Source: a phage. From it: 64,000 bases of DNA. The notes under the pieces were generated by a model that worked only from the letters and a program-made list of their open reading frames with translations, was not told the origin of the DNA and ran no database searches. The translations under genes and the position numbers were made by a program. Location of the stretch: sequence record NC_111505.1; one strand, given 5' to 3'. Of this stretch, positions 5,757 through 44,861 are shown piece after piece (positions within the stretch are counted from its first letter, which is position 1; every line of letters begins with the position of its first letter).

Positions 5757-8700
5757 ATGGTAATAAATAATACGACGAACACCTTCATCGTACCACCCAC
5801 GCTTCACCATTTGGTGGTGCATGAGTATCCCAACTAAGTCACACAACGATGCACCACCATTTTGTTGGTATGCATTAAGTAAAGAGTGTTTAGATCGAGT
5901 CCAGATGGCATGACCATCAAAAGAGTAGATAAACTTCTTACCTGTTGCTTCCCAGAATTTCTCCAGATCCTCTTTGCGCCCCTTAAGACCAGGGTTGGCA
6001 TCCCAAAGCGCATCGATTACCTTTTGCCCTAACTCTGGGGAGATATCCAGCATGTCTGCAACTTTATCTTTTTGTGCCCCGTACATAACACCGTACGTGA
6101 CAGGCTTACCATCGTTACGGGAAATCTCCTTGCCTGCTACAGAAGAGTAAGCTTTGGCGTTATTACAGTTACCGCACACTGCCACTTTACCATTCCTTCT
6201 CACAATGATTGCTCCAGAAGGGACGGTAACGCAATAAACCAAAGAACCACTCACCTCGACAGACTCTTTAGATAGTGTCAGCAACCCTGCTCTCTGTTTG
6301 CTACCAATCGTGATTCTGTGCTGTACGGAACGACCTTTTTTGTGAATCGCCACCGTATTATTCCGTAAACCACACTGAGTAGCCAGCGCAGACACAACCT
6401 CTACAGATTTCTTCCTGCACTCGGCCTGAGAGTAGTAGGCAACTTTTCCACCTTCGGAAGATACCCACCCGTCCCAGTTAGATAAAGAAGCTATAAACAG
6501 GTTTTTAGATTCTTTATCAAGGTCCATCAGGTTGTAGGTGAAATCCTTATTGCTGTCCAAAAACTCAAATACCCAGGACGGAACGTGGAATTGGAACCTT
6601 CTCGCCAGTAAGCCCCCTTTTGTGGTTTTCCCGCCCTGCTCTACATAACTAAGGCTTAGAGCAGAAAAAGTATCTAAAAGCGTTGCAACTTTTCTGCCCT
6701 TCCCGACCTGAATCCTGCACACGATGCTGCCGTCCTTATTTGTATGCAAGTGTCCATCATCGTGAATAGCAATAAGCAAATTAATCTGGGCAGGAGATAA
6801 GGTTGTATTCCCATAAAACTCTGCCGCATGGATAAACCTTCTTCCTGAATTAGACCCTTTACCTGCTTTCAGGTCTTTTGCCAAATCTTCAAACAATTTA
6901 TTGCTTCTGTGATCCACGGTCAGCATCCTGTGTTGATCTGTAACCATAAAATCCACACCGCTGTTGTGGAAATGATACATATCCCCACAATAACCACGCT
7001 TAACGTAATTTAATGGTGTAACAAGGTTCATCGACGAGGTGTTGTGATCGTACTGGAACACTTGTGTTCCCGGATCAAGATCTTCAAACCTCACCCACCC
7101 TTTCTCCGTGAGAATTTGTGTATCTCCTGAATAACAGTGTGCATCGCCGTTACTTACAACATCATAATACAAGCCGTTGTCGAACTCAAAGGCACCCCAA
7201 GCCCCGATAAGCTGCTCTAAGTTGGACCCGTCAATACCGATCTCAAAGTATCCTGGAGGAACGCCCCACAGACTACGCATCTCTTTACCCATAACCACTT
7301 TAGGAGATGGTTTAGGCATGTTTGCACAAATACTGTGTTTCTGTCTGGAAGTGTTTGTCAATCCAGAACTTTTAGCAGGAAGCTTGTGGTCAATCTTCAG
7401 ACGTGGATGATTAAGAAGACCAGTATCAACCTTATCCTCCTTGATTGGATCAAGTACCGATCTACGGTTTCGCAAGGATAACCACAAGACGATATCTTTA
7501 GCCATCTCTCCGTTCAACTTTTCAAGATTCGGACATAGGTGTCCAAACGTATCTTTCAGTTGCGGAGAAGTAATAAGCGCTCTGGCTTTTCTACGTATCT
7601 TCCCAAACACTTCCTTTTTAATCCTTTCTGAGTTAGGGAAGCTTCGGAACTTGTGCACGGTTGTCTGAAACTTAGCATCAGTTTTGTTCCAGAAGTTGAT
7701 AATTAGGTCACAATACTCTGACTCTAAAAGCTCGTCCATATATGCATATACTCGTGCATCAACATCAGCATCAGGCAGAGCTTTCTTCTTGCTGTCCTTG
7801 GTTACATCTTTAGTTCTCCACATTGTTGGGAGCCAACCAGCGCTGATCAAATATCGCTTAATATCGTCCTGGTTGCTGATCTTCATAGGTATCTTGCAGT
7901 CAGGCATCCGCTTCTGCTGCAGATCACTTATTGCCTGATCCATTAGTTCTTTAGGTAAAGGATGTGGTGTCGAGGTACCTTTAATATACCCCCTTAAGAA
8001 ATCAGCCATCTTATCGGGGTCTTTGCAGCCCATCTCTTCACACCATTTTATCCCCATTTTGCTGACATCTCCTGTGGAGGTAAAGGCTCGCTTAGGTGGG
8101 GCTTTGAATTCTAAAGCACTCATGTCCACAGGATAGCCAAGCTTGTCTTTTAACCATTTCCAACCGTTATTAGAGATTGTCCCATCTTGGTTAAACGGCT
8201 TTTCAGGGAACTTAGGCCGCTGAGACATTGATAGCTCTTTTAGAGGAAGTTGTGGTTCAACACGATCAGCGATCTCTTTCATCCACGCATCGCAGCGGTC
8301 ACGTAAAGCAATAGCCCCATCTATGTCGAAATACACACCCTGTCGAGCCTGCAGCTCCATCAGGAAATGCTGCAGCATGCCTCGGCGTAATGCATTCTTC
8401 CAGGTGATCTTCTTGAAGCCTTTCGGCTTCTCTTTGGCAGGATCGTACATAAAGTTCTGCATGTCAGATTTGCCGTAGAATACACCTTTTGATTCTGCTA
8501 CCAACTCCTTCCAGAGCAACTCCTGGATGATAACGTCCTCGAACACACGATCCACATACTTCCACAGCGGAAGCTCACGCCAGTCATCGATTTGAACTTT
8601 CTGGTTACCAAGGGCATAGCCCCATGCCATAAGGCCATGAGGCCCAACAGGTTGCATTTTCTTGGTAACTGGATTGAATACTGCGTCCGGACAACCTTTT

Positions 8701-29771: not shown

Positions 29772-32700
29772 TTAACGAGAAAAGGTTGCGTAGGCTTCTA
29801 GACGATACTGCTGGTCACCAGGGAACATAACACCTATAGAGGCTGTCCCTAGAATCCTGCCTTCCTTTCCAGACTCCATTCTGAACCCTACCCATCCTGA
29901 ACTCCTTGCAGCATCGATGTTGTCTCTATACCCGAAAGTGGCAAGATCGTCAACACCAGCCCCAAACAGCAACTGAAGCTGACTTCTCGGAAGCCCTATA
30001 ATTTCAGGAATATACGCACCAAAGTACACCATCTGCCCTACCTTAGGACCGCTGCCGTACTCCATCGGCTTGCTTGTAGAGAAAGTCTTCATACCAGAAG
30101 TCCCTGCCGGATTAGGATATGCCCCGTTTGTTGCTGTACCTATCCACATTCTCCACTGTGGTGCCATCTGTTTGACAGTAAAAGATGTTGAAGACGTTTT
30201 GCGCCCTGCATCATCTGTAACTACAAACTTTATAGTGACATTCCCAGTAGCTTTAAATGTTACCAGCCCTGTGGTAGCATCCACTGTTGCAATGTTGGTA
30301 TTACTACTTTCCCAAGTCTTTCTGATTCCTGGCACATTGGAAGGGGTAATAGAAGGTTCCTGCATCTGCAGTTTACCACCTACAATCCCTATCCCGTTTC
30401 CTGGATTATACAACGCACCAACCTCGTCTACAATGTTACCTGCCTTGAGGCTGTACTTTTTAGAGAAGTTGTAAGTGCCGTTATATGTGTGTGTCCCTGA
30501 GAAGGTTACATCTGCTTTTCCGTAAGAGATGCAAACCAAAGCATACTTCCTGTCAGGCAACGGTGCCCCAGTTTCTGGGTGAGTTTTACCCACCTGAAAC
30601 ACACTCGGGTCAGTGGAGTCTTGGCTATCACTAACTGAGTTTGGGCCACCCATCAGTTGTGACAAGCAATTCCTTACCCATGTCCAGTTATTATCGCTGG
30701 AGAAGTCCACAGTTAAATCAAACACAACCCACTCATTTGGCTTCCACACAGGTGTTGCAATGGACTTGCCTACACCGCCTCCTTGGAGTGTTGCCGACTG
30801 TTCAGTGATCAGGGCCGCGTAGGCCAGAGTTCCTAAACTCAGAGTTTGGCTTGCTGTCCTCACTACCTTAGAATCAGCATCTGTGAAGTTGTTGATGATC
30901 TGGAATGTGCCATAAGTGTTTTTACAGGTAATTCTGGCGTTCAGCGTGTCAATCTTCCTCACATCTGCCATAGCAGTGTTAGACACAGAGAAGTCAGAAG
31001 CTTTAGCTGAGTTTGCCGCAACAGCAGGATCAACGTTAAGAGTTGCGTTGAACTGACAAGCTGGGGTAACCAGCAGCTTGTTATCACCTATTTGCTTCCA
31101 TGAAACACTTTGAACAGGGAGATTCCATTTAATACCTGAGAAAACTTTAGCAACCCTTGGCCCCAGAGCTCCAGTCCTGGTGTCTTTACAGCACATGGAC
31201 ATGGTGATCGTTGACGGAGTGGCCTGACCAAACAATTGCTGTGCTTTTGCAGAGGACATGGTGTAGAAATTGTCCTTAACAAACTCATCAGCCGCCAATG
31301 ATCCGTCAGATCTCCACCATTGCACCTGGTACCCTGTCTTATCCCAGCCACCGACCTGCTTCAGGTCCTCCCAGGAGATTTCCAGATCCCCAGTGGTAGG
31401 GTTGATTGCAGCAGTTCCTGGTGTTCCAGAGGACCATAATGGGATATCGAACCATGCTGGTTTAACAGATTGTACTGCGTTCGGTCCTATTGCAGCAGCA
31501 AGTTGCTGACCCATCAACACACGAGAATCTTTTACCAAGCCCCATTCAATCATGGACCCAGAGTAGCCTTCTTTCTTATAGGCCGAAGATCCGTTCAAAT
31601 GGATAAGCCTGCTGCAGTCGAAACCATACGCCCCGCCACCGTTAGGATCTGCAAAGTTAGTTATGATTCTATCCCTTATATTTTTCCATGCCCTGCCTCC
31701 AATCTCGTAGTCATGGTCATAACATCTCTGCAGCGTTGTCCAGCAAATGATTGCCATTCTTCTGCCACCAGTAAACCCGAAAGCGCCGTCATTCAACTCT
31801 TTCCACAGATAGCAGTTAGTTGCCCACATAGCTCTGTGGATATTGAACCAGTTTATAGACTTAGCAGAATTGTCCCACTGAGTTCCCGGTAATTCAGGCC
31901 ACACTGCATTAACCAACATGTCTTCTGTTCCTGCATCAACTAAGAACCCTCTCACCTTTTTACCCATACCTGCCCTGTCTTTAGCAATCCAATTGCCAAA
32001 CAGTCTCAGTTTTGGACCATAAACGACATCCTCTGGGTGCTCAAAAGAAACATACTTTAAGTAGATTGTTGGGTCACCGTAGGTGCCATCACAAACACTT
32101 TTGTGCATGTTTTCGCCAAGATCTAGACGAAGCCCTGTCACCACTTTAGACGTGTCGGTGAATTTGTCTGTTAAATCAAATTCATACCACCACCATCCAC
32201 CACCAAGCATAAATTTCTTGCATCGAGCATTGTCTGTATCAGATATTCTCTTATCCCCTGCAAAAGGTGAATCAGCAAACTGATAATGCAGAGCAGTCTC
32301 GAATAAATGTGTTGAGGTTCCGTTTTCTGCAAGAACTTGCTTACCTATTAAGTCGCACTTAATGATCATCACAACACGTTTGTACCCGTTTGTTACTGGA
32401 ACTTGCATAGACATGGATGTCCCATCCATGTTTGATCTCAGCACGGTCATGACGATATAAGGGTCAACGGCATTGCCCAGAGTTTCAGGACCAGGGATTA
32501 TCTTGTACTTCTTAACCTGCCCCATAAACCTGTCACTGGCGTAAGTTGCAGCCTCGAAGCAAGATCCTCCATTAGGTAGTTCGCCAGGACCCCAGAAAAA
32601 TGCGCCATAACAGTTATAAAACCACTTGTTAGGATCGTATTTGTTCTTGAAGGTCTGAACCTCGTTAGCCTGTTTTGTCAAGAAAACCTGAGTATCTGTG

Positions 32701-34442
32701 AAGATTGCAGGATTCACTCTTGCCTGTCGATCAGCATATCCAGGTTGGTTAAACCACTGATTGCAAGAATAGTCCCGCATATAGTCATAATCAGAGTATT
32801 TATTGTTTGCATCCTCGTTCCAACACATATTAAGGTTGGTGCCGCCCATGCACACAATATATTCTTCAACGTATTTATCACTTCGGGTGGGAATACCTAC
32901 GAACCATCTATTAACAGGTTCGTTCCAAGCAGTACGCTCATCCTTAACGCAGATTGCAATCCAGTCATGTGTCCCTGTTTTCTTGCACACATCGCGCTTC
33001 ATACCGTAGTAGAATTCTTTAGTATTTGGCTCAGGTGCACTTATCAGGTAACTCCACGCCTGGTCTGCATATGTTCCGTTGGTGCGAGGGTCATGATCAA
33101 AGGCATACATGATGATTCTTTCTCCACCAAGATGTTCACCAAGGGTGACTTTGATGTTCACATCCCCGTAACCGTTGCGAACAACATCCATATTATCAAT
33201 AGAAATGCCTCTAGGAGTGTAGGCAATTTTCAGTGAGTTATCCTCACTAGTGCCACCAAGGGTGATCCCAATATTGTTTGTCGTCCCGTCAGCATATCTT
33301 ACTGTAGCTTCCCAGCGTATTCCGAAATATCCTACGTCATGGCTGACAATTTTTAATGTACGAGCACCAGAGTTAGGTTTTCCAGGATCAGGCCAAGGGT
33401 TTGGGTGTTCGTGAACCGTCAACGATGTCCCGTTTTGTTCGTTGACCTGCAACATTTTACCACCCCTTCCGTTTGGGTTGAACTCCCATAGGGCCTGTGT
33501 CTGCACCAAGTTATCATAGGTATTCCGTCGCTGACTATAAATCTCTTGGGTAACATCATAAGTTACTGATCCAGCATCCATTCTATGGAGTCTGACCATA
33601 TACGATGTATCCCCTTCTACTGCAGGCTGGGCCGCATTTAGTCCAAAGTATACAGTGTCATTAACATGGAACTGTTTGTTTCTACCGGCAGTATGCCATT
33701 TACCATCAGACGGATACGCCGGAACAATAGTGTTCCAGTTCAAAGTCCTTGTTGTGTGGGTCCTGCCTGTGCCATGTTTGTCATGATAGGTTATTTTTAC
33801 AGAGTACAGACCACGTCTGTTAACATTCCTGTTATACTGGGTAACAATAACTTCGTTGGCCCCACCGTGGTTCCAGTTAGTAGAGAATTGGTAATTCGCA
33901 TCTGTAACAACCGTGCCTGCAGCATTTACCAGTTCAATCTTGTCAATAATGAACGTAGCACCCTCTGGCTGAGGCTTTAATTTCATCTTGACCGTATCAC
34001 CAATGTAAATATTGCTAACGCTGCTAACACCGTTAACGTCGAAAATATCATCAACACCCCAACTGTCTACTGGGACATTTTTATACCAATTCTCAGGGAC
34101 CTCCGTGAACCCTTGGCTATTAAGTCTGCCGCCAAACAGGTTATTAGATCCTGCAAAACTTCCCCTCGGGATGCCTGACCACCAAAGTTTGCCATTAACA
34201 ACAGTAAAGGTTCCTAAAAAAACCTTCTCTGTGAATGCCTTGGAAATAAACACTTTCTGTCCAGCTAACTGGGAGGCGTTGCTCAACGTATTTGGCTGTG
34301 GCAAGAGCTTGATAGTGGATAAAATTGGCCCTAGGGCTATTGTTTGCAGATTGTGCGCCAATATCATTGCAAAGGTTGCGAGAGAATCCACGGTACTGCT
34401 TAGTACCATTGTTGAAGAAAATGCCACTTGTGCCGTACCCAC
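29772..34442 (-). CDS. giant tail-associated protein (1556 aa) with Ig-like (Big_2-type) domain; true 5' end uncertain
   Basis: longest ORF from track; C-terminal NIATVDATTGLVTFKATGNVTIKFVVTDDAG resembles bacterial Ig-like domain; first about 75 codons overlap the upstream ORF in another frame and look low-complexity. Confidence 0.55.
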   Translation of the reverse strand: MGTAQVAFSSTMVLSSTVDSLATFAMILAHNLQTIALGPILSTIKLLPQPNTLSNASQLAGQKVFISKAFTEKVFLGTFTVVNGKLWWSGIPRGSFAGSNNLFGGRLNSQGFTEVPENWYKNVPVDSWGVDDIFDVNGVSSVSNIYIGDTVKMKLKPQPEGATFIIDKIELVNAAGTVVTDANYQFSTNWNHGGANEVIVTQYNRNVNRRGLYSVKITYHDKHGTGRTHTTRTLNWNTIVPAYPSDGKWHTAGRNKQFHVNDTVYFGLNAAQPAVEGDTSYMVRLHRMDAGSVTYDVTQEIYSQRRNTYDNLVQTQALWEFNPNGRGGKMLQVNEQNGTSLTVHEHPNPWPDPGKPNSGARTLKIVSHDVGYFGIRWEATVRYADGTTNNIGITLGGTSEDNSLKIAYTPRGISIDNMDVVRNGYGDVNIKVTLGEHLGGERIIMYAFDHDPRTNGTYADQAWSYLISAPEPNTKEFYYGMKRDVCKKTGTHDWIAICVKDERTAWNEPVNRWFVGIPTRSDKYVEEYIVCMGGTNLNMCWNEDANNKYSDYDYMRDYSCNQWFNQPGYADRQARVNPAIFTDTQVFLTKQANEVQTFKNKYDPNKWFYNCYGAFFWGPGELPNGGSCFEAATYASDRFMGQVKKYKIIPGPETLGNAVDPYIVMTVLRSNMDGTSMSMQVPVTNGYKRVVMIIKCDLIGKQVLAENGTSTHLFETALHYQFADSPFAGDKRISDTDNARCKKFMLGGGWWWYEFDLTDKFTDTSKVVTGLRLDLGENMHKSVCDGTYGDPTIYLKYVSFEHPEDVVYGPKLRLFGNWIAKDRAGMGKKVRGFLVDAGTEDMLVNAVWPELPGTQWDNSAKSINWFNIHRAMWATNCYLWKELNDGAFGFTGGRRMAIICWTTLQRCYDHDYEIGGRAWKNIRDRIITNFADPNGGGAYGFDCSRLIHLNGSSAYKKEGYSGSMIEWGLVKDSRVLMGQQLAAAIGPNAVQSVKPAWFDIPLWSSGTPGTAAINPTTGDLEISWEDLKQVGGWDKTGYQVQWWRSDGSLAADEFVKDNFYTMSSAKAQQLFGQATPSTITMSMCCKDTRTGALGPRVAKVFSGIKWNLPVQSVSWKQIGDNKLLVTPACQFNATLNVDPAVAANSAKASDFSVSNTAMADVRKIDTLNARITCKNTYGTFQIINNFTDADSKVVRTASQTLSLGTLAYAALITEQSATLQGGGVGKSIATPVWKPNEWVVFDLTVDFSSDNNWTWVRNCLSQLMGGPNSVSDSQDSTDPSVFQVGKTHPETGAPLPDRKYALVCISYGKADVTFSGTHTYNGTYNFSKKYSLKAGNIVDEVGALYNPGNGIGIVGGKLQMQEPSITPSNVPGIRKTWESSNTNIATVDATTGLVTFKATGNVTIKFVVTDDAGRKTSSTSFTVKQMAPQWRMWIGTATNGAYPNPAGTSGMKTFSTSKPMEYGSGPKVGQMVYFGAYIPEIIGLPRSQLQLLFGAGVDDLATFGYRDNIDAARSSGWVGFRMESGKEGRILGTASIGVMFPGDQQYRLEAYATFSR

Positions 34443-35409
34443 GAGCCATTATTACCTCATGGGTGTAGGTGATATTCAAGGCACGCCATGTATCATCTCC
34501 CCAAACATCTTGCCCGTAGAATACGTTAACAAGTTGCTGGTCATCAGGTCTGTGCATTCTTTGTGTTACAACCACTGCCCCGTTCGGACCGCACATGAAC
34601 CCTTTCCACTCCTCATCTGTAGGAATGCCCCTCAAATCGTCACGGGTAATCTGAGCGGGGGGCCAAACGAGAGTGTTTCTACTATTGTTTCTCAGAAAGT
34701 CATATCCAGCAATCCAGAAACCTCTAGGACCACCGAAAATAACAGAGTTATCATGCACCTCACAGTTAATGCTTGGGTTTTTCCAAGGACCTGTTTCAGG
34801 ATTTTCCGATGTTTCACCAATCTTTACAGGGGTTGCATGCTGGTTTTTATCCACATGCAAAGACCCGTAGGTGTTGTTACCAGATCCGTACAAGTGTAAA
34901 ATGCCAGTGCCTTCTGCCTCTGCCATAACCCAGACGGTGTTGTTAATACCACCCATCACCTCAACAAGGCGCTCTGGGTGGGTGTCAAGGTGCAATCCTT
35001 TAACGATTTGTTCAGGAAGAGGTGTCCACTCCCTTACACAAACATCATTACCGCCTGCAGCATCAGACCCAATAAGCCCTGCAGTACAGCCGATGTAGAA
35101 AAACTGATTATCAAAAGTTCGGATCACAAACGCACGGTCTGCTCTCCACACATGATCAACGTTCCAGGCAGCCTCATTAGGGTAGTTTATCGTGTCAAGA
35201 TCCCCAGTCCTACACTCCCCGAACCTGTTGTACCCTGTGATATTAAGCTGACCATTGTCAAAAAGTATAGCTAAGCTATTTACATAGGCTACTGTAGTGC
35301 TTGTACCGTCACTGTTGTCTATTGGGTATGACAGAACAGCAAGTTCCTTAACTCCACCCCTCTTATCGAGGAAATGACGACCAAGTTTTAGCAAAGGGAT
35401 TGGAAGCAT
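34195..35409 (-). CDS. beta-propeller-like protein (RCC1-like repeats); possibly the N-terminal part of the downstream giant protein
   Basis: repeated aromatic/Gly motifs (YGSGNNTYGSLHVD, FYIGCTAGLIGSD); C-terminus overlaps the giant ORF by 248 nt. Confidence 0.5.
   Translation of the reverse strand: MLPIPLLKLGRHFLDKRGGVKELAVLSYPIDNSDGTSTTVAYVNSLAILFDNGQLNITGYNRFGECRTGDLDTINYPNEAAWNVDHVWRADRAFVIRTFDNQFFYIGCTAGLIGSDAAGGNDVCVREWTPLPEQIVKGLHLDTHPERLVEVMGGINNTVWVMAEAEGTGILHLYGSGNNTYGSLHVDKNQHATPVKIGETSENPETGPWKNPSINCEVHDNSVIFGGPRGFWIAGYDFLRNNSRNTLVWPPAQITRDDLRGIPTDEEWKGFMCGPNGAVVVTQRMHRPDDQQLVNVFYGQDVWGDDTWRALNITYTHEVIMARGYGTSGIFFNNGTKQYRGFSRNLCNDIGAQSANNSPRANFIHYQALATAKYVEQRLPVSWTESVYFQGIHREGFFRNLYCC
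34216..34222 (-). other. T7 homopolymer at the frame junction between ORF 34195..35409 and ORF 29772..34442
   Basis: minus strand GAAGG-TTTTTTT-AGGAAC about 20 nt before the upstream stop; removing one T joins ...IHREGF to LGTFTVVNGKLWWSG... as one ORF of about 1880 aa. Confidence 0.5.
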
Positions 35410-35430
35410 TGTGTTCTCCAGATAAGAAAA

Positions 35431-35449
35431 CCGCCCCGTCAGGAGCGGT
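35431..35449 (-). terminator. hairpin with U-run (attenuator or terminator)
   Basis: minus strand CCGCUCC-UGAC-GGGGCGG + UUUUCUUAUCU after the fibre gene. Confidence 0.35.
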
Positions 35450-35457
35450 CAGATATA

Positions 35458-37203
35458 TTAACGTTGTGCAATAACCACATCCACAATATCACCAACACCA
35501 CAATATGTCAATTGTAGCAAGGTAACGCTGTTGGCTTTGTTGTTAATGACAGGGGTAGCCGACAGTATGGCATATTTATCGTGCAAAGTCACGTTGTGGC
35601 CTACAGCATCTTGAATGACATAGATGATTGCAGTAAACGGGTAAGGTTTATCTTCAGCCGATGTTCCAGGCCATTGGCCTATTGTAAAATCCCCTTTCGC
35701 GTGGACAACATACATACTGGCCTGCCCGTTAGGTGTCCATGTCCCACTCGATGCTTCAACCTCCTCTAAGTCAAAGTCTACTTTTCCTGCGTGGAAAGTA
35801 GGGGCAGTGATGGTTTTACCAGCCTCAATTCCTTGAGAGGTGGTTATCTTACCGCTGGAGTTAATACCATTACAAACAAAGTTGACATTAGAGAAGTCTG
35901 GTAGCCACCCAGTCACTGTGCCGGATATTTCAAGGTTATGAAGGCGTGTTGTTCCTGTGCCGTTGTCATTTAAGCTAACATCGCCATTTACCTGCAAGTT
36001 CCTGGTAACGTTGCAGTTTTCAGAGTTTGCAGTCGTTGCAGTTAAAGTAGTGGTTGTCAGCTCGGTAATTACACCTTTGTTGGCTGTAAGTCCCTCTCCT
36101 TCAAAAGTTGCACGCTCATTGACTCTTAGGGTATTCAGAGATATGTTTTGGATAGATGCTGTACCTCGAATAACTACAGATCCGCCAACCTCTAAATCGC
36201 CATTGATCAGTGCATCCCCCGTGCTTTCAATATAGCTAGGGTAGATCATGGTGCCATCTACAGAGTAGGTTATCCCTGTAACGGTACCTGTCACCTCAAG
36301 GTTCTTAACCCTGGTGGTCCCAGCAACCTGTAATGTTGGTTCGGTTGCTGCCTTCATGGCATTACCACGGATGTACACGTAGTCAAAAAAGTTATTACCC
36401 AGACCATCAAAATGTACATCGTTATTATTAGCCACCGGTTTCCCAGAAGTTATAGTGTCAGCTATAACCCTGTGGGTGGACACTTCATGGGGTTGCAGCT
36501 CTGTACTTCTCCAGTCTGCATGCTTAGGATCGCTCCACGCAAAAGTAAGTGTAGAAGTATTTGCCGTGAGGATTAGATTCCTAAAGCGTGCAGTAGAATC
36601 TGCTCCATTAACAGGCCCATGTAAGGTGAGTGTGCCCCCAACTATGGTGTTAGCAAGTTCTGTAAGACCTTTTACCACCAAAGACCCTACAGTAACCTTC
36701 ATCCCCTCCATAGCTTTAAATATGCTATCCACATAGTCCACAACAAACTCTGTGTTTGCTATAGACTCGGACTTATCGTCCATTGGAGGTGTAGGTACTC
36801 GCGGGTCACCTTCGAATCTTGGGCTGTTAAGTTTTGCGTAGTATTTTGCCATTACTGCAGAATCGGTATATAATCTCCAGTTCGGAGATTGTGAAGGATC
36901 TGCTGGCATCCTAACCGGGTTAGATTTTGATGCTGCTGGGGCGTACCACCACTGAGGGCCTGTATCCCCTTTAAACTCATACAACTGGTTAAAAACTGTT
37001 GTGGATGCACCATACGCCCAAGGGATTGGTGGCGTTTTAAAATAAAGGGTGTCAAGCATGGCTTTTCGTACCGTAGGGATGGTGGTCCCATCCTCTACGA
37101 CAACTTCATCCACAGCGTTACCGTTGACAATCAGGTGCAAACGTTCAGAATCAACAATTACTTGATCTACCGCCTGCTCAAAGCTTGTCATGTCTTGCGC
37201 CAT
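35458..37203 (-). CDS. tail fibre protein
   Basis: 581 aa; G/T/N/V-rich beta-helix-like repeats (NLEVTGTVTGITYSVDG, NLEISGTVTG). Confidence 0.5.
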   Translation of the reverse strand: MAQDMTSFEQAVDQVIVDSERLHLIVNGNAVDEVVVEDGTTIPTVRKAMLDTLYFKTPPIPWAYGASTTVFNQLYEFKGDTGPQWWYAPAASKSNPVRMPADPSQSPNWRLYTDSAVMAKYYAKLNSPRFEGDPRVPTPPMDDKSESIANTEFVVDYVDSIFKAMEGMKVTVGSLVVKGLTELANTIVGGTLTLHGPVNGADSTARFRNLILTANTSTLTFAWSDPKHADWRSTELQPHEVSTHRVIADTITSGKPVANNNDVHFDGLGNNFFDYVYIRGNAMKAATEPTLQVAGTTRVKNLEVTGTVTGITYSVDGTMIYPSYIESTGDALINGDLEVGGSVVIRGTASIQNISLNTLRVNERATFEGEGLTANKGVITELTTTTLTATTANSENCNVTRNLQVNGDVSLNDNGTGTTRLHNLEISGTVTGWLPDFSNVNFVCNGINSSGKITTSQGIEAGKTITAPTFHAGKVDFDLEEVEASSGTWTPNGQASMYVVHAKGDFTIGQWPGTSAEDKPYPFTAIIYVIQDAVGHNVTLHDKYAILSATPVINNKANSVTLLQLTYCGVGDIVDVVIAQR

Positions 37204-37212
37204 GATTTCTCC

Positions 37213-37479
37213 TTAAGCTTTTTGCTCTTCGTTTTTAACGTGGTCAGGGTGCTGGCAACCCCACCGGAGCGAGATGAATTTGCTAATAAGCTGGGGGCAA
37301 GCTACTGAAGGTGCGTATATCCACGCATACCATTCAGGAAGCGTATCATTGTACCCCATATGAATAAACACCCCAGTCATCACTGCCATGCCTATGTTTG
37401 ACCATAGCTTAGATTGGGACACTTTTGTAGGGTCATCAGATGCTGCAACCAGTCCCCATAAAAACTGAGTTAATTTCAT
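37213..37479 (-). CDS. small membrane protein
   Basis: 88 aa with hydrophobic segment WSNIGMAVMTGVFIHMG. Confidence 0.4.
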   Translation of the reverse strand: MKLTQFLWGLVAASDDPTKVSQSKLWSNIGMAVMTGVFIHMGYNDTLPEWYAWIYAPSVACPQLISKFISLRWGCQHPDHVKNEEQKA

Positions 37480-37488
37480 TTACCCTCT

Positions 37489-38535
37489 TTAAGCATAAGA
37501 TATGGTGATCCATTGACCGTTTACAAATTTTTGAATAGCTCCAGTCCAATAGTCTCCCTGATACGGGTGTTTATATGCGTAATTGCCGGAGCACATTACA
37601 TGCCCGGGGTATACTCTTGACTCTCTGTAGGTGGTTCTGAAACGGTTTGCTATCCTTACATCTTCAACACCCCTACTAGGCATAGGGATAGTAAGGTTAC
37701 CACTACTGTCTGCGCTACTACCATTTACCCTGCGGACCACGTTTCTTCCACCAACTGTTGCATATTGACCTCTGGCGGTTTTATCGTTACAATCTACTCT
37801 TCCACCTATTTGAGCGCTGCCGCAGGATTGTTGCCCATTAACAGTGGATCTGGGTATCGTTACCGCATTAGCATTTGCAGAGGAGCTTTTTGCATCATTG
37901 CATTCAAGATTTCCTTGGATAGCCAGTCTTGCACGGTTGGCAGTTATAGCATTGAGCTTCATAGCCGAAAACACAGGCTGCCCACCAGAAGGTTGAAATC
38001 TCCAACGGAAACCGTCTATTTGGTGAGAGGGATCATCAAGGTCTGTGCCGTCAGCACCACCGATGTTGTCCATAATCCAGAAATCCATCATCGTCTTGTC
38101 TGGAGTTATGGTGGTGTATATCGCCGCACTATCTGTTGACGCGGATGCAAACTCGATTCTTTGAAGACCTAAAGTTTGAGTCTGGATCATTGTGTCTCCA
38201 GCCTTGTCAACATAAAGGTCATCCATTTCTTCAGGCGAGTATACATTAAGAACTTGACGTGCAGCAGCTTTGTCTGGAACGTCTGCCAGATTATTAGTGA
38301 CCCTTAAGAATCTATTATCCCATCCTGGGACAACATCTTCTGTTAAATGCTTTAACCACGCAGAGAGCATATTAAGTTCAAAGTTAACAACTTCACATGC
38401 CACTCTTTGTGTCATATCCCAACCTTTCAATCTCTCTTCTTTTTTTGGTTGGGACTTATTCAATTCTCCCGTATTTTCAAGCACAACATCCTGATTGGCC
38501 CAAATATCAAGAGGGATAACTGGTTTAGTCATCAC
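37489..38535 (-). CDS. tail fibre protein, paralog B
   Basis: 348 aa; shares N-terminal P-L-x-I-W-A and C-terminal K-x-VNGQWIT-x-x-YA with 39548..40588. Confidence 0.6.
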   Translation of the reverse strand: MMTKPVIPLDIWANQDVVLENTGELNKSQPKKEERLKGWDMTQRVACEVVNFELNMLSAWLKHLTEDVVPGWDNRFLRVTNNLADVPDKAAARQVLNVYSPEEMDDLYVDKAGDTMIQTQTLGLQRIEFASASTDSAAIYTTITPDKTMMDFWIMDNIGGADGTDLDDPSHQIDGFRWRFQPSGGQPVFSAMKLNAITANRARLAIQGNLECNDAKSSSANANAVTIPRSTVNGQQSCGSAQIGGRVDCNDKTARGQYATVGGRNVVRRVNGSSADSSGNLTIPMPSRGVEDVRIANRFRTTYRESRVYPGHVMCSGNYAYKHPYQGDYWTGAIQKFVNGQWITISYA

Positions 38536-38622
38536 GTTCTCCTGAGAAAATTCCTTAAGGACTATTTTAACACTTTAGAGAACAAAATGCAAGAACGGCA
38601 TCCTTGCCGTTCTGACCTTTGT

Positions 38623-38937
38623 TTACCTTTTACTATGCTCTACAAGCATGTGTAAAATCTTTTGCACATCGGCTCTGATACCGGAGACATCTGTCCTGAC
38701 ATCTTGCTTAAGGTCGTTAATATCGGCCTCTAGCTTACTTAACCGGGTCTCAATAATGGAATCAAGTCTATCTTTTGTAACCATGCTATTTTTCACTAAA
38801 ATGAGGTCTTTCTCCAGCTCATCCAGCCTCTTGGAAATGCCTTTCCATTTGGTGTGCCACTGGTTGAAAGCCCATACACAGATCGGGACAACGGTACCCA
38901 TGCAGATACCGTACAGTGCCGCCAAATCCAACTCCAC
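38623..38937 (-). CDS. membrane-anchored coiled-coil protein
   Basis: 104 aa; N-terminal hydrophobic segment then heptad-like region (LDELEKDLILVKN...LEADINDLKQDV). Confidence 0.4.
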   Translation of the reverse strand: MELDLAALYGICMGTVVPICVWAFNQWHTKWKGISKRLDELEKDLILVKNSMVTKDRLDSIIETRLSKLEADINDLKQDVRTDVSGIRADVQKILHMLVEHSKR

Positions 38938-38948
38938 AACACCTCCTC

Positions 38949-39533
38949 TTAGAGGGTAGGTCGTTCCGGGAAGAAAATGTCAGGGGCTTTAGATGTATCT
39001 ATGTCAAGAAGTTTTACCCTGTACATTTTCAAATCTCTGATGTTGCGTTTTTGGTCATCAGTGAGATCGTATTCAAGGTCAATCATGTCTTGATAGGCAC
39101 CAATTCTAGCAGTAGCCCAAGCAAGTTCTGTCTCTATGACACCCTCTGCCTGTTGAACAAAGAATTCATTGTCTGTGACAAATTCATCACCAACTAAACG
39201 CAAAGCGTCGTGGTGGAGCATAATGTTTTCTGGTACCTCTTCTTTTTTGGCGATAACCACACGAAGACCTGGAGCAGGCCACAAGGCATCGGGTTCTTCT
39301 GTAGATGTCTTAAGAATACCCTTCTCGTCAACAAGTAGGAAGATACAACCCGGATTTTCTTGTCGTAATGTTCGTGATTGCACATACCAATCGCCATCAT
39401 CATTACGTAAAAAATATCCAGTGTATGCCGTATAATCCTCAACCTCCTGAGGAGTCAGCTCCTTGGTACCTTTGTTGGTGTGGTATTCGCCAGATCCCGG
39501 TTGGTAAAGCTTAAACTCTTGAAGTATTTTCAT
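38949..39533 (-). CDS. tfa: tail fibre assembly protein (lambda Tfa-like)
   Basis: 194 aa; C-terminal YRVKLLDIDTSKAPDIFFPERP resembles my recollection of the lambda Tfa C-terminus ([22 protein letters not shown]); follows a fibre gene. Confidence 0.6.
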   Translation of the reverse strand: MKILQEFKLYQPGSGEYHTNKGTKELTPQEVEDYTAYTGYFLRNDDGDWYVQSRTLRQENPGCIFLLVDEKGILKTSTEEPDALWPAPGLRVVIAKKEEVPENIMLHHDALRLVGDEFVTDNEFFVQQAEGVIETELAWATARIGAYQDMIDLEYDLTDDQKRNIRDLKMYRVKLLDIDTSKAPDIFFPERPTL

Positions 39534-39547
39534 GCTAGTCCTCCGAT

Positions 39548-40588
39548 CTACGCATAATTAACAGTGATCCATTGACCATTTACAAGTTTCTGTAAAGGCC
39601 CTGCCCAGTAGGTTGAACCACGCATCTCTTTTTTATCACCAAAATGCCAACCTGTGACAACGTAGCCGTTGCGAACTGGAGATTCAGAAACACCATCAAC
39701 AAGTCTTGCGCCGATTCTGATATCCTGTACACCTGTCTGCGGGATGGTGATCGTTACATCTCCGTTGCCGTTAGCCGTCACTCCATTCACAGAGCGCACC
39801 ACATTTCTGTTACCGACAACACAATGCTGGCTTCTTACAACCATACTGTCACAACTTGCACCTCCATTGACATATACTGACCCAGCCGTCAACTGACTAG
39901 CTACATTGCAGTTGGTGAATGTTGCTGCGCTGCTAATGGTGAGGCTATTACATCGCATGTTATCAACAACTTCAACATTGCCCACCACTTTCAACAACGC
40001 ACGATTAGCCGTGATCGCGTTCAGGTACATCAGGGTGAACTCTGGGTTAATGTCCGGCTGAGTTGGCTGGAATCTCCAACGGAACGCATCTACTGTGGAG
40101 GTGCCGCCATCATCAAACGCCCCAACATTATCACTTAACCCAAAGTCGAGAGTTGTCTTATCTGGGCCAATAGTTGTCTCTATCCAAGCCTTATCTGTAT
40201 CGGCAGCTTTAAAGTTGATACGTTGCAAACCCAATGGGCCTGTCATTGTATCACCTGTAACTTTCACATACCTGGCGTCTGCCTCTTCCTTAGTAATAAT
40301 ACCAAGGTTTCTACGGGCAACAGGGATGTTCAAAAGATCACTCAAGTTATTATCACGTACCAGATAACGGCCTTCTTGAGCGGGGATCTGCTCGTCAGCA
40401 ATGTATTTTGCCCAAGTCCCGAGCATATTGAAAATATAGTTAAGTTCTTCACAAGATGGCTTTTGACCAAGATCCCAACCTTTTCTCCACAAATCATCAA
40501 TCGGGCGTAGCCTGTTCTGTCTGTGGGTGTTAGGCAGAACCTGATCCTCCTCTGCCCAAATCTCTAATGGAAAACTAGGTTTTGACAT
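39548..40588 (-). CDS. tail fibre protein, paralog A
   Basis: 346 aa; paralog of 37489..38535; followed by the Tfa-like chaperone. Confidence 0.6.
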   Translation of the reverse strand: MSKPSFPLEIWAEEDQVLPNTHRQNRLRPIDDLWRKGWDLGQKPSCEELNYIFNMLGTWAKYIADEQIPAQEGRYLVRDNNLSDLLNIPVARRNLGIITKEEADARYVKVTGDTMTGPLGLQRINFKAADTDKAWIETTIGPDKTTLDFGLSDNVGAFDDGGTSTVDAFRWRFQPTQPDINPEFTLMYLNAITANRALLKVVGNVEVVDNMRCNSLTISSAATFTNCNVASQLTAGSVYVNGGASCDSMVVRSQHCVVGNRNVVRSVNGVTANGNGDVTITIPQTGVQDIRIGARLVDGVSESPVRNGYVVTGWHFGDKKEMRGSTYWAGPLQKLVNGQWITVNYA

Positions 40589-40600
40589 TTTATCTCCTGA

Positions 40601-42673
40601 TTATGAGAAGTCTGGCGGGACAACATCTTCTACATACCCTTTCAGAGCAACCTGCCCCATATGAAGCACGGTAGAATCTCTGGCGGTAACAGTGATGCTG
40701 TCAGACATTACTTGCGGGTATGCCCACACATACTGTTTTACCTCAGGGTATCTATACTCTATGGTTGCCATGTTTCCGCAAATACATCTCCATAAAAATT
40801 CTTGGTAATTCCTGGTTGGGTCGTAGCCATATACCGGAGCAAGCTCTTTGCTAGGAACGAACCCTGCAAGGTATTGTATTTCAGACGGTTGCCAACCTAA
40901 CTTAACGATAGGTATGTTTACAGACTCTTTTGCCTTTTCAATACCACCCTGCATCACCCAATCGTAGCACTCAGTGCAGAAGAAATCAAGAGCACCTGCT
41001 TCCTTTTTATATTGGTCAGCAAGGTTCAGCTTTTGCGTAAGCTCGGTTTCCATAATGGTCGGGAAAAACAGCAAAGCTGTCATCTGAGCCGATGCAGCGT
41101 GTGCTTTTATTGCCTTTGAAATAGCTGCAATACGAGCGCCAAGCTTACCACGACAAAATGCTACATACTTGTCATAAACACCGCCAGTTTTAGGATCGTC
41201 AATAGTCCCAATGTCTAGGGCATATTCACCAGTCTCATCATAAAACGCCTGTTTTGTAGGGTAGTCATAAATACAAGGTCTACGAGTATCGGTATTGTAC
41301 CACCACCACGGTTCACCAACCTGCATAATCACTGGCAGGTTGTTTCTCATAGCGGCTGATGCAAAATTCTTAAATACTGCAGTAAGGAAATTCATACCCT
41401 CTTCAATGGTTGGAGACAGGAGGTAACTACAAGGTGTATATCCTGTTTTAGCGTAGTTATCGTTCCAGTCTCTTTGGGTCCATTCCAACGGACAGGCATC
41501 GCTGAAAAGCTCAAAGCTTACAGACTGCATAACGTCGAAGTCATGTCGTTTGGCATTGTACATAAAGTCATCATGCCATTTATAAGCTGCAGCGTTTAGA
41601 GCCCCTGTTCTGTTTATAGACCATTGAGTTCCGGACCATGTGTAATCATAATAATGGCTCATACCAACATAATGGTTTATGGTTCCGGTATAGCCTAGAC
41701 GCTTGATATTGCTCAACACCCTTAAAGGAGATACGTTCCACATATCGTCATATGCTGTGCAGATCCCAACGTCGTGCTCTTTCACCTGGATATTGTTAAG
41801 TTGCATCATCTTCCAGCCTGTGTCCGGCTGAAGCAGATCTAGACGCAACTCGCACTCTACATTTTCCGTTCTTGGGTCTGTGCTATTACTTACCCAATCT
41901 TTAGGCATAAGTGGTATTAAAATCCTTCTCACCTGCCGAGGATCAACACCCATCATGTTGTTGTTCTGGTCCATCCCGACGCAGTCCTCGAAATCAATAT
42001 GAATTTCTGCAACATTCTTATCCTCTGAGATGCTGACAGCATATTGAGCTAAAGGAACATAGATGATTGTGCCGTCAACAAGGTCTACAGTCATAATCAT
42101 CTTTTCAGGGGTGGAGAAGTTGCTGGCATTAGTTATTGACATTCTGAACCAAAGCTTGGTGTTTCTCATCTCATAGTGATCATCAAATCCAATGCCGAAA
42201 TGGTCATACTTGTCAACTGTTTCCCAAATGCACCCAGCCATGCCGCCATATGTTCTTGACACTAAACGGTTAATACAGCAGTTATTATCCGCAACAATAC
42301 AGGTGCTTTCAGTTTGCTGTGTGGTTGTAACCCAATATCTTGGGTGAAACATTCTCTCCTCAACGGTATCCCAAGATATTCTGTCAAGATTCTCATCTGA
42401 AACTATTGTACATTTCGCTCTTTGTGTTCCAATCATAACCCCTTGGGAGTTTGATGAAAACTCCATAAAGAAGCTTCTTGGCAACCTGTTTGGCAATTTG
42501 TCAACAATTTCTACAGGGATCTCAATACTGGTTGCCCCAACCGGGATAGTTACATCTCCCTCAACATGATCATAATCTCTACCTGGAACTGCAGTATCCT
42601 GAACTGTGCGGTAATGAAACCGTGCAGCCATCGTAGAGTAATCACGGTAAGGTTTAAAAACAGCTGTTGCCAT
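40601..42673 (-). CDS. tail or baseplate-associated protein with Calx-beta-like N-terminal motif
   Basis: 690 aa; DTAVPGRDYDHVEGDVTIPVGATSIEIPVEIVDK resembles Calx-beta; W/Y-rich C-terminal region. Confidence 0.4.
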   Translation of the reverse strand: MATAVFKPYRDYSTMAARFHYRTVQDTAVPGRDYDHVEGDVTIPVGATSIEIPVEIVDKLPNRLPRSFFMEFSSNSQGVMIGTQRAKCTIVSDENLDRISWDTVEERMFHPRYWVTTTQQTESTCIVADNNCCINRLVSRTYGGMAGCIWETVDKYDHFGIGFDDHYEMRNTKLWFRMSITNASNFSTPEKMIMTVDLVDGTIIYVPLAQYAVSISEDKNVAEIHIDFEDCVGMDQNNNMMGVDPRQVRRILIPLMPKDWVSNSTDPRTENVECELRLDLLQPDTGWKMMQLNNIQVKEHDVGICTAYDDMWNVSPLRVLSNIKRLGYTGTINHYVGMSHYYDYTWSGTQWSINRTGALNAAAYKWHDDFMYNAKRHDFDVMQSVSFELFSDACPLEWTQRDWNDNYAKTGYTPCSYLLSPTIEEGMNFLTAVFKNFASAAMRNNLPVIMQVGEPWWWYNTDTRRPCIYDYPTKQAFYDETGEYALDIGTIDDPKTGGVYDKYVAFCRGKLGARIAAISKAIKAHAASAQMTALLFFPTIMETELTQKLNLADQYKKEAGALDFFCTECYDWVMQGGIEKAKESVNIPIVKLGWQPSEIQYLAGFVPSKELAPVYGYDPTRNYQEFLWRCICGNMATIEYRYPEVKQYVWAYPQVMSDSITVTARDSTVLHMGQVALKGYVEDVVPPDFS

Positions 42674-43359
42674 TAACCCTCCTGTCTAGTTGCGTTTACT
42701 GTAATACTTTCACAATAAATGGTTGTGGTGTCCCAATCAGGTCTTACGTCAGGAACATACAACAAAGTAGCCAGCCCACCAACTCCGAATTGGTTTTCTT
42801 CCCACACCGATCCGAAGCCAAGAGCTGTAGAGTCCCCTTCAAAACCAAAAGCTTGCCCTTGAGATTCTGTAAGACGCAAATGACAAGGCAATGGTAGCAT
42901 GTCTAAGATCTGATCAATAGACTGCAATATGTCAAAGCAAGTTTTTCTAATATTTATGTCAAACCTGAAGTTGTCCCCTTTCCACGTATCGAAATTGTCT
43001 CTTCCGAACAATTGTCGCAAGGTTGAGATGACATCTTCACGAGTCCCGCCTCTCGATGCTGCTGCCTGCTGAATAATCAGGGTGGCACGAAAATCAGCAT
43101 CTGAAAGCCCATTCCGAAGAATACCGAGTTGATTACCAACTTCGTCAAGGTATCTTCCGCTGGCATTGTTAAGCAATCTTCCTTCAGCCAAACCTACCAG
43201 CATCTTATCAACATTCTCCAACCTTTTAAGGTACACGGTTAAGAATGTGACTAAATTAACCTTCTCAGCCAGAAAATCTCCAGGCAGGTAGTCAAGACCC
43301 CCCTGAACAAAATCTGGCAGAGTGTGGATGTGGTTAACATCCGACTTAATCCCTGCCAT
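42673..43359 (-). CDS. putative baseplate protein
   Basis: 228 aa; position next to the J-family-like gene. Confidence 0.35.
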   Translation of the reverse strand: MAGIKSDVNHIHTLPDFVQGGLDYLPGDFLAEKVNLVTFLTVYLKRLENVDKMLVGLAEGRLLNNASGRYLDEVGNQLGILRNGLSDADFRATLIIQQAAASRGGTREDVISTLRQLFGRDNFDTWKGDNFRFDINIRKTCFDILQSIDQILDMLPLPCHLRLTESQGQAFGFEGDSTALGFGSVWEENQFGVGGLATLLYVPDVRPDWDTTTIYCESITVNATRQEG

Positions 43360-43370
43360 ATTCCGCCGCC

Positions 43371-44861
43371 TTAAATAGTTTGTTGGAAAGTTATATTACT
43401 TTCATCGAGGTCAAACACCTCGGTCATGTTTGCAACAATATCGTTTGTGGTGTAAGCTTCGTCAGAGGCTCCCACAGGTTTAACTTGAATTACCAATCTG
43501 TTAAATCTGCCTATCGACACAGCAGCTGATGCAGCACCTACCAATTGGATATTGTACAACGTATCGGCGACATCCAAGCCGTTAACAACCTGCAAAAGAG
43601 CCTCTGTAATGGCATCTTTTTCGGTAGTAGAAAGAGCAGCACCTGAGTAGGTAATTATCATATCCAGGCGGTAAGTGTTTGCCTTAGAATAATAAATCCT
43701 TTCAGTCTGACCGTCTGATGTGGTAATATCGTAGAAGATATTCCCATAAGTTCTGTTTGTGCAAGCTATGGTTTGATACAGCGCCTGACAGATATCCTCT
43801 GTTGCACCACCAAACACCACCACTTGAAACTTATAAGGTGGTATACCTTTCGCATCCGTTTTATCGGTGTTGTTAGAGAACACTCTTACTTTCTCAACAC
43901 CTTTCACTTCGCTTACAGCGCTAAGGATTGCAGGGCGGGTAGCTTTAGATGTCAACTGTTTAGTGCTGGAAGCTCTTAGGCGATACTCTGAGTCCTTCTC
44001 AACATCCCTACCCTCATTGAATCTTTCTCGGTTGGTAAGCTTGATAAATCCGCTGGGAGTAGGCGACATTGTTGTTACAGTTTCTGCCTCTCTTGACAGC
44101 TCACCTGCCTCGTTAGCGATAACATCTAGGGTGATAGTTCTTTCACCTACAATCGGGGATACTCTGAAATCTACTCTGCTATTAAGCCCAACTTGATCAA
44201 GATTCGAATTGTATCCTATCCACAACGTTCCTGTCAACATATCTATCTGAATTAAATCGTCGTTCAACAGGGTTGTGTTATCTACAATAAATTGCTTAAT
44301 CTCGCCGTAAAAGCTTGGTAAATCAGAAGAGTCCAGAGACTTATCGGTTAAAACCAGACTTTTTGTTTTGATACTTCCATCTGTCTGGTTGGTAATTTGA
44401 AAGTTGTATTTACCGATTCTTAGATCTGGAGCGTTTATCCTGTGAGCAATAAGATTCCCCGCCACCTGCACGTCACTGCTAAGAACAAAGTTGCCACTAT
44501 CCAGCGTGTAGGTTTTGGAATCATAAATCATATTGTACGGCACAGTTGTGTTAATTGTCAACTGGCAAGTGCCTGATGATTTAGAACGACCTCTCCGGTA
44601 AATACCTTGCCTTCCAAGAAGTTCATCAAGGTAAATACCTTCTGCCCCATACAGCGTCTGGGATGCGTATACAGATGCTGCCATAAGAATAAGTTGATAC
44701 TCTCGCTCGTTGAAGATAGTGGTCAGCTTATCTGCAACGGAGTTACTTTGTACGTTGAAGTTTTCGCCAAAAGCACGGATCAGGCTTTGCTTAGTTTCAA
44801 CGATTAGGTCATTTAGGGTTGGTATAACGAAACCAGCCTCGGTCAATCCATACTTAGCCAC
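43371..44861 (-). CDS. putative baseplate J-family-like protein
   Basis: 496 aa; assignment by N-terminal resemblance and gene context only. Confidence 0.35.
   Translation of the reverse strand: MAKYGLTEAGFVIPTLNDLIVETKQSLIRAFGENFNVQSNSVADKLTTIFNEREYQLILMAASVYASQTLYGAEGIYLDELLGRQGIYRRGRSKSSGTCQLTINTTVPYNMIYDSKTYTLDSGNFVLSSDVQVAGNLIAHRINAPDLRIGKYNFQITNQTDGSIKTKSLVLTDKSLDSSDLPSFYGEIKQFIVDNTTLLNDDLIQIDMLTGTLWIGYNSNLDQVGLNSRVDFRVSPIVGERTITLDVIANEAGELSREAETVTTMSPTPSGFIKLTNRERFNEGRDVEKDSEYRLRASSTKQLTSKATRPAILSAVSEVKGVEKVRVFSNNTDKTDAKGIPPYKFQVVVFGGATEDICQALYQTIACTNRTYGNIFYDITTSDGQTERIYYSKANTYRLDMIITYSGAALSTTEKDAITEALLQVVNGLDVADTLYNIQLVGAASAAVSIGRFNRLVIQVKPVGASDEAYTTNDIVANMTEVFDLDESNITFQQTI

Follow-up and report, generated by a model that had tools for sequence, protein, structure and literature searches.

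Positions 37,489 to 40,588 of the phage DNA analysed here (64,000 nucleotides of sequence record NC_111505.1, below called the window) hold two related tail fibre genes, of which only the first is followed by a chaperone gene. The question raised by this arrangement is whether the two fibres are alternated as a switch of receptor specificity or are used side by side. The genes concerned all lie on the minus strand: STF1, which encodes a short tail fibre (STF) of 346 amino acids (aa) at 39548-40588; the gene of the tail fibre assembly protein Tfa (194 aa) at 38949-39533; and STF2, which encodes a second short tail fibre at 37489-38532. They correspond to gp33, gp32 and gp30 of phage rV5, respectively. 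A first-pass annotation, made from the sequence alone, had proposed a switch. The present analysis points, as the likely overall explanation, to a fixed two-fibre set with a single chaperone in an rV5-like myophage.

By alignment, STF1 and STF2 are true paralogs beyond any doubt. BLASTP aligned the two proteins end to end with 154 identities over 356 positions (43%) and an E value of 6e-96, and both match the family profile phrog_4465 over their full length, STF1 with 5.7e-171 (residues 1-346 on profile positions 1-342 of 342) and STF2 with 2.1e-163. The first-pass annotation had spoken of duplicated tail fibre genes and had named alignment statistics as the test of their paralogy, and in this respect it was right. 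It had also given the fibre sizes as 346 and 348 aa. Both open reading frames (ORFs) are present, but the 348-aa form of STF2 starts from a GTG (37489-38535), and the likely start is the ATG at 38532, which yields 347 aa. The ATG is preferred because AGGAGA is located 5 nucleotides (nt) upstream of it, because all annotated relatives use it (1044 nt) and because the GTG is absent from L013 and L014, two metagenomic contigs that carry the same two fibres.

The pattern on which the proposed switch was based, namely, conserved N- and C-terminal ends around a divergent middle, was not recovered. In a sliding window of 30 aa, the identity of STF1 and STF2 ranges from 23 to 63% throughout. It peaks in the centre, where columns 106-165 reach 50-63% (57-63% at columns 106-150), and it has minima at columns 61-90 (27%), 211-255 (27%) and 301-330 (23%). 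By region, identity amounts to 40% over the N-terminal 100 columns, 57% over columns 101-230, 35% over columns 231-330 and 44% in the C-terminal part. The centre is thus the part most alike, and the N-terminal 100 aa as well as the tip are lower, with 33-37% identity at residues ~286-330 of the tips. Of the shared ends, what stands is confined to the first ~30 aa (50% identity) and the last ~20 aa (~75%); the latter correspond to 63 nt at 75% nt identity, the sole stretch with similarity at the nucleotide level, and the remainder of the ends does not follow the claim.

Judged from its sequence, the window is that of a Vequintavirus, i.e., an rV5-like myophage. The closest genome for the 9.5 kb around the fibre pair is that of Escherichia phage FV3 (97.3% nt identity); in all, 121 phage records match this stretch, and more than 100 others do so at 94-97% nt identity, nearly all of them classed as Vequintavirus. 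Every gene of the region is encoded on the minus strand, and gene order and sizes equal those of rV5 gp36 down to gp27. In particular, rV5 gp33, gp32, gp31, gp30 and gp29 are the same genes in the same order, on the same strand and of the same sizes (346, 194, 104, 347 and 88 aa). The paralog identity is the same in both phages (42-43%), and the window differs by few amino acids and in nothing essential. The gene order, from wedge genes to fibre and Tfa, is also that of EmilHeitz, rV5_ev147, FV3, HMD-6 and 241Ecol014PP. Elsewhere, loci of the rV5 type appear in the BASEL collection as two genes for a 'short tail fiber protein' plus a 'tail fiber chaperone', and as class TC1 of RBPseg.

The rV5 proteins have been studied directly. 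Kropinski et al. (2013) reported gp30 (347 aa) and gp33 as fibre proteins with 42.3% identity, proposed that two lipopolysaccharide (LPS) chemotypes may be recognised and detected gp30, gp32 (Tfa) and gp33 in rV5 virions by mass spectrometry (PMC3606486). Since gp30 and gp33 are both present in virions, the two fibres are co-expressed and not alternated. Maffei et al. (2021) found the rV5-like fibre loci to be homologous to the single phi92-like locus and to Mu GpS/GpU, observed no considerable allelic variation of the paralogs and showed that the members tested all need the LPS core, as waaC and waaG mutants were resistant. In the RBPseg study of 2025, short tail fibre density was seen by cryo-electron microscopy in Bas49 and Bas54, two Vequintaviruses, and a Mu-like C terminus was described for the short fibre, for which Tfa is probably needed (PMC12143355). 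The fibre pair with its chaperone is already known, as the short tail fibres of rV5, and constitutes a real, correctly located and ordinary feature. The details added by this study are modest: a displaced membrane gene, a putative private terminator and promoter, tip exchange and N termini specific to each paralog.

In the arrangement proposed here, each fibre would be a trimer similar to Mu GpS. It would attach to the baseplate wedge by its N-terminal ~100 residues and would bind the terminal receptor, which for this group would be the LPS core, with its C-terminal tip. Both fibres would be made late and built into the same virion, with no switch involved, and a single Tfa of the gp32 type would fold STF1 and STF2 through their C-terminal ends. 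STF2 would be expressed from behind its own terminator-like hairpin and late-promoter-like motif, in a slot that belongs to a 157-aa gene in related phages.

Sequence matches to proteins of known structure are consistent with the docking part of this arrangement. Residues 1-108 of STF1 match the N terminus (to residue 111) of the short tail fibre of phage phiTE (PDB 9CUY; 1.8e-19), and residues 1-83 of STF2 match the same N terminus with 4.1e-9. In the phiTE structure, the wedge 1 protein binds this segment, which forms a globular joint (PMC11972413). Both fibres carry this predicted N-terminal baseplate (wedge) attachment domain and would dock through it. The homology of the window fibres to that of phiTE covers the N-terminal ~90-108 residues, whereas the remainder of the phiTE fibre (554 aa; predicted coiled coil and immunoglobulin-like (Ig-like) domains) is unrelated, and phiTE is reported to be flagellotropic and LPS independent. 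Many related phages have in common only the first ~76-120 residues of the fibre.

At the opposite end, residues 286-343 of STF1 match the C terminus of the Mu fibre protein S, as resolved in complex with its chaperone (PDB 5YVQ; 1.3e-6). Monomer models of both fibres were generated with AlphaFold2 from an alignment of 31 sequences and were used for a coarse fold search only, given a mean predicted local distance difference test (pLDDT) of 59.9 and 59.7 and a predicted template modelling score (pTM) of 0.27-0.29. Poor monomer models are expected for trimeric fibres. In a Foldseek search against the PDB, 5yvq_A was the only significant match for either model (7.7e-9 for STF1 and 3.6e-6 for STF2; pLDDT ~60). 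The likeness to Mu GpS/GpU comprises the STF1 C terminus at the sequence level, the 5yvq fold match of both low-confidence models and the conserved C-terminal domain of Tfa. Since the two tips differ, a difference in receptor fine specificity is possible.

The STF1 tip alone (39548-39730, residues 287-344, the last ~58) is also 57-59% identical to the fibre ends of unrelated phages of ~52 kb, namely, JEP7, BEC1-17, the Salmonella phages birk and yarpen and one record labelled Listeria phage. This distribution indicates that the STF1 tip module is horizontally shared, and on the matches obtained, docking and tip modules travel separately.

The chaperone gene lies 14 nt past the STF1 stop. Its product matches the Pfam family Caudo_TAP (PF02413) with 45 bits against a cut-off of 22.1 (E = 1.5e-11; residues 122-192) and phrog_136 over its full length (E = 3.8e-36); a sequence search of the PDB with Tfa returned no meaningful match. 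The statement that the first fibre is followed by a lambda-Tfa-like gene is thus confirmed, and so is the statement that this applies to one fibre only, as a phmmer search with Tfa of ORFs of at least 50 aa across the 64-kb window detected no second copy. Most probably, this one Tfa folds both fibres via their C-terminal ends. In Mu and Pam3, the variable N-terminal domain of Tfa grips the distal fibre end, the conserved C-terminal domain drives trimerisation, and Mu Tfa remains on the virion (PMC9608196); rV5 Tfa was likewise detected in virions. A shared chaperone would fit three observations. First, the similarity of the paralogs over the last ~16 codons extends to the nucleotide level (79% here and 89% in the metagenomic contig L010). 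Second, the final residues agree within each genome, being ..YA/..YA here and in L010 and ..QTL/..QTL in L013 and L014. Third, the Tfa of two-fibre lineages has ~18-24 extra residues near its N terminus that are absent from the Tfa of single-fibre sister groups. This co-variation of the fibre ends with Tfa is suggestive of a shared chaperone, not proof of it.

The small proteins around STF2 were found to have a history of their own. The gene of a 104-aa protein (38623-38937, minus strand; rV5 gp31; phrog_5345, 1.1e-48) is situated between the Tfa gene and STF2, and STF2 is followed by the gene of an 88-aa membrane protein (37213-37479, minus strand; rV5 gp29; phrog_1322, 2.7e-32). The former has a hydrophobic N-terminal segment, and rV5 gp31 is annotated as a membrane protein with one transmembrane domain, whereas the latter shows no non-synonymous change compared to two other Vequintaviruses. 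The Pfam matches of the 104-aa protein (XhlA, EzrA and others) were weak and below threshold, and no function was assigned to it. The first-pass annotation had placed small membrane or coiled-coil proteins around the second fibre, instead of a chaperone. These neighbours do exist, but the 'instead' does not hold, as single-fibre phages have the same cassette: in Av-05, GAP31, Salmonella phage R7 and KpS8, the fibre gene is followed by the genes of Tfa, of the 104-aa, 157-aa and 88-aa proteins and of the 581-aa fibre, in this order. Because the cassette is present in the same order in single-fibre relatives, i.e., before STF2, the small proteins do not take the place of a chaperone. Judged from this synteny, the 104-aa, 157-aa and 88-aa genes form an ancestral conserved cassette, which most likely has no connection with the duplication. 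The protein of 157 aa is strongly hydrophobic along its whole length; in all four phages, its gene overlaps that of the 104-aa protein by 4 nt. STF2 occupies the exact slot of this membrane gene of the single-fibre sister genera, and a tblastn search of the window for a remnant or relocated 157-aa gene revealed none (best E = 0.044).

Several variants of this cassette were observed. It is located amid the tail fibre genes across the Vequintavirinae (positions 6138-7201 of locus L003), with its middle member replaced by STF2 in the genus of the window. Both the 157-aa and the 88-aa gene are absent from the phi92-like phage PaulScherrer, where the positional counterpart gives a weak match to an Rz-like spanin (phrog_739, 5.4e-4). 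In L013 (7067-7447) and L014 (6024-6404), the 88-aa protein reaches a length of 126 aa, the extension being a charged, repetitive tail with many Ser, Asp, Arg and Tyr residues (..RYSDDRYSDNRWPEYSDSRYSEHSGDRYSD..).

The gap of 87 nt between the 104-aa gene and STF2 contains, on the minus strand, a hairpin resembling an intrinsic terminator (38613-38592; 9-bp stem with 5 GC pairs) with TTGCATTTT as its tail, followed by the late-promoter-like motif TGTTAAAATA (38572-38563), which is located 30 nt upstream of the STF2 ATG. L010, L013 and L014 retain a hairpin with the TTGCATTTT tail and the same spacing, but their stems differ, with 4 pairs changed on both sides. The promoter-like motif matches 9 of the 10 positions of the late-gene motif TggTAaAAtA reported for rV5 in 2013 (PMC3606486). 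With at most one mismatch, the late motif occurs 22 times in the window against 5.4 occurrences expected, and GTG(T/C)TAAAATA is conserved in L010, L013 and L014. An exact copy of TGTTAAAATA at 44903-44894 lies after a terminator-like site (44960-44939) and ahead of the baseplate wedge gene. A sigma-70 promoter scan of the locus predicted no site between the 104-aa gene and STF2; overall, 30 sites were found against 20.7 expected, and as this excess is modest, the late motif of the phage itself was relied on. A second helix proposed by RNAalifold for columns 35-55 of the intergenic alignment overlaps the T-run and the promoter motif and is regarded as spurious. These signals suggest that STF2, the 88-aa gene and the gene of the 581-aa fibre form a separate putative late transcription unit.

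Both fibre genes are under purifying selection: compared to two other Vequintaviruses, the ratio of non-synonymous to synonymous substitution rates (dN/dS) is 0.04-0.05 for STF1, 0.07 for STF2 and 0.05 for Tfa. STF1 is 88% identical to its counterpart in L010 and 72% to that in L013; the corresponding values are 77% and 48% for STF2 and 77% and 44% for Tfa, which diverges about as fast as STF2, a parallel that likewise fits a shared chaperone. The neighbouring structural proteins lie between (82-88% to L010 and 61-79% to L013). On these identities, STF2 and Tfa evolve fastest, and STF1 is the conserved copy.

Homologs were searched for in 50,697 phage records and 5.8 billion proteins. Among the latter, STF2 as query recovered only seven relatives, three of which led to the metagenomic contigs (L010-L014), which show the same two-fibre arrangement at greater divergence. 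Copy counts were taken from spread samples of the tblastn hit lists; in these samples, all records listed at an identity of at least 95%, which are of the Vequintavirus type, have two copies, and all records listed below 60% have one. The single-fibre sister groups are represented by Avunavirus Av-05, Seunavirus GAP31/PVP-SE1, Mydovirus KpS8 and the phi92-like Justusliebigvirus PaulScherrer, all of which have a neighbourhood like that of the window (wedge genes, fibre, Tfa and 104-aa protein). STF1 is 47-51% identical to the single-copy orthologs of the Av-05, GAP31/PVP-SE1 and KpS8 groups and 30% identical to the fibre of PaulScherrer, and STF2 is 38-44% identical to the single-copy orthologs. 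STF1 is most likely the ancestral copy and the positional ortholog of the single fibre of the sister genera, with STF2 being an old extra copy. The age of this copy is suggested by a neighbour-joining tree, in which STF1 and STF2 form separate clades (100% and 94% bootstrap, respectively).

The two ends of the paralogs have had different fates. In L013 and L014, STF2 shares ~90% identity with STF1 from its own genome over the last ~60 residues, so the tip has been exchanged between the paralogs there. The exchanged tip spans the last ~60-80 codons (~90% identity at the amino acid and ~80% at the nucleotide level); in L013, STF1 and STF2 share 80% nt identity over 248 nt, and no nucleotide similarity is detectable elsewhere in this gene pair. 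The N-terminal ~105 residues, in turn, are paralog specific in all lineages sampled: residues 61-105 of STF2 are 70-90% conserved among STF2 orthologs and only 27-37% identical to STF1. As a tentative suggestion, the lasting difference between the paralogs might be the N-terminal docking domain and not the receptor tip, the tips being free to diverge or homogenise and the extreme C terminus following the single, fast-evolving Tfa of each genome.

As to the origin of STF2, a duplication in place would be the simplest explanation, as the paralogs share 57% identity in the central region, which is more than the 44-53% that either shares with the outgroups. It is also conceivable, albeit rather unlikely, that STF2 came from another phage by horizontal transfer, as a complete fibre gene that brought its promoter along in the manner of a moron, and later exchanged segments with STF1. 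Such an origin would agree with the position of STF2 behind a terminator/promoter pair, where it replaces a different gene, and with the segment exchange documented by the tips of L013 and L014. In addition, the tree lends no support (40% bootstrap) to STF2 as sister to STF1, and the N-terminal 100 aa of STF2 share more identity with the GAP31 and R7 orthologs (51-53%) than with STF1 (40%). However, no donor lineage was found in the searches of phage records and proteins described above, where the nearest full-length relatives of STF2 were STF2 orthologs in the same arrangement or STF1, and the high identity of the central region also speaks against an independent source.

Known fibre switches, such as those of Mu (G) and P1 (C), consist of alternative C-terminal exons with their chaperones, which are arranged in opposite orientation between inverted repeats and adjoin an invertase. 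The Mu G segment has two alternative tip/chaperone pairs (S/U and S'/U') in opposite orientation, whereas the window has two complete, co-oriented fibres and one chaperone, and it is without an invertible segment, flanking inverted repeats or a shared constant N-terminal exon. STF1 and STF2 are both on the minus strand, each is complete with its own start codon, and they have no constant N-terminal part in common. Inverted repeats within 37000-41000 were only of chance level (14-18 nt, 78-86% complementary), and no invertase or recombinase of the Gin/Cin type was found in Pfam and PHROG scans, which covered only the ORFs of 34195-44861. The model of the first-pass annotation, a switching module with constant ends and an exchangeable middle in which STF2 is either independent of Tfa or served by the small proteins, is hence very improbable. 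The dissimilar tips, the position of the Tfa gene directly after STF1 only and the name 'tail fibre assembly protein', which one GenBank annotator gave to the 88-aa protein, would be in line with it. Yet this protein matches a membrane-protein family and no Tfa family, the identity profile is the opposite of the one claimed, both fibres are present in rV5 virions, and the model is largely refuted by single-fibre phages, which have the 104-aa and 88-aa genes in unchanged order. The view of STF2 as a duplicate that is redundant or in decay and has no role of its own is hardly tenable, since its faster divergence and slightly higher dN/dS than STF1 are outweighed by a dN/dS far below 1, by its intact state in all Vequintavirus-type records of the spread samples and in the divergent metagenomic lineages, by the detection of its counterpart in rV5 virions and by an N-terminal signature (residues 61-105) that is 80-90% conserved among STF2 orthologs.

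Several points weigh against a fixed two-fibre set with one chaperone as laid out here. The tip of STF2 gave no match to Mu S at the sequence level, having diverged too far, and the fold matches stem from low-confidence monomer models (pLDDT ~60) with TM scores of 0.16-0.29, that of STF2 being 0.16. The putative terminator and promoter ahead of STF2 are consensus matches backed by conservation, and the branching of STF2 with respect to the single-copy orthologs reached only the 40% bootstrap mentioned above. Finally, STF1 and STF2 may share their baseplate sites and receptors or may each have their own.

The fibre pair is embedded in a run of structural genes on the minus strand. First in transcription order is the baseplate wedge gene (44861-43371), which is followed by the genes of a 228-aa baseplate protein and of a 690-aa protein, the upstream neighbour of STF1, which has an NCTSP TIM-barrel domain and a weaker Calx-beta match. 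Beyond the 88-aa gene lies that of the 581-aa tail fibre (35458-37203, minus strand; rV5 gp28; phrog_4549, 3.7e-248), homologs of which carry the Pfam domains Phage_phiTE_241_N/C. A terminator-like hairpin site at 35429-35450 comes after this gene, and a very large Ig-like fibre gene, also on the minus strand, lies downstream. A search of NCBIfam with eight proteins of the locus returned no match for any of them.

The Ig-like lateral fibre gene (29772-35409) is split here into ORFs of 404 and 1556 aa and forms a single coding sequence of 1877 aa in FV3, EmilHeitz and others. The split is located at 34216-34222 (minus strand), where the window has a run of 7 T compared to 6 T in rV5_ev147, HMD-6 and FV3, which could be a homopolymer sequencing error or a true frameshift mutation. 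In L010 (9124-13044), the gene consists of three ORFs (475, 183 and 1209+ aa), and in L011 (9124-13044) it is one ORF of 1876 aa; it seems prone to interruption in assemblies. A further observation concerns 16-21 GenBank records named 'Campylobacter phage' (MG065644, MG065690 and others; host Campylobacter jejuni), which share ~94% nt identity with the locus. Such a match to an rV5-like locus of E. coli phages is odd for the stated host.

Phages of the rV5 type rank among the commonest E. coli phage isolates, and both therapy and the biocontrol of O157 are uses for which they are candidates. The terminal receptor step of these phages depends on the short fibres treated here, and the practical value of the analysis may lie in the distinction of STF1 as the conserved from STF2 as the variable copy and in the view of tip and docking domain as separate modules. 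In engineering either fibre, the single chaperone probably must be kept. If the tentative suggestion made above on the docking domain is true, rV5-like phages would have two sets of short fibres at two different baseplate positions, with one chaperone folding both; the later set would have come in on a cassette with its own promoter, at the expense of a membrane protein gene.

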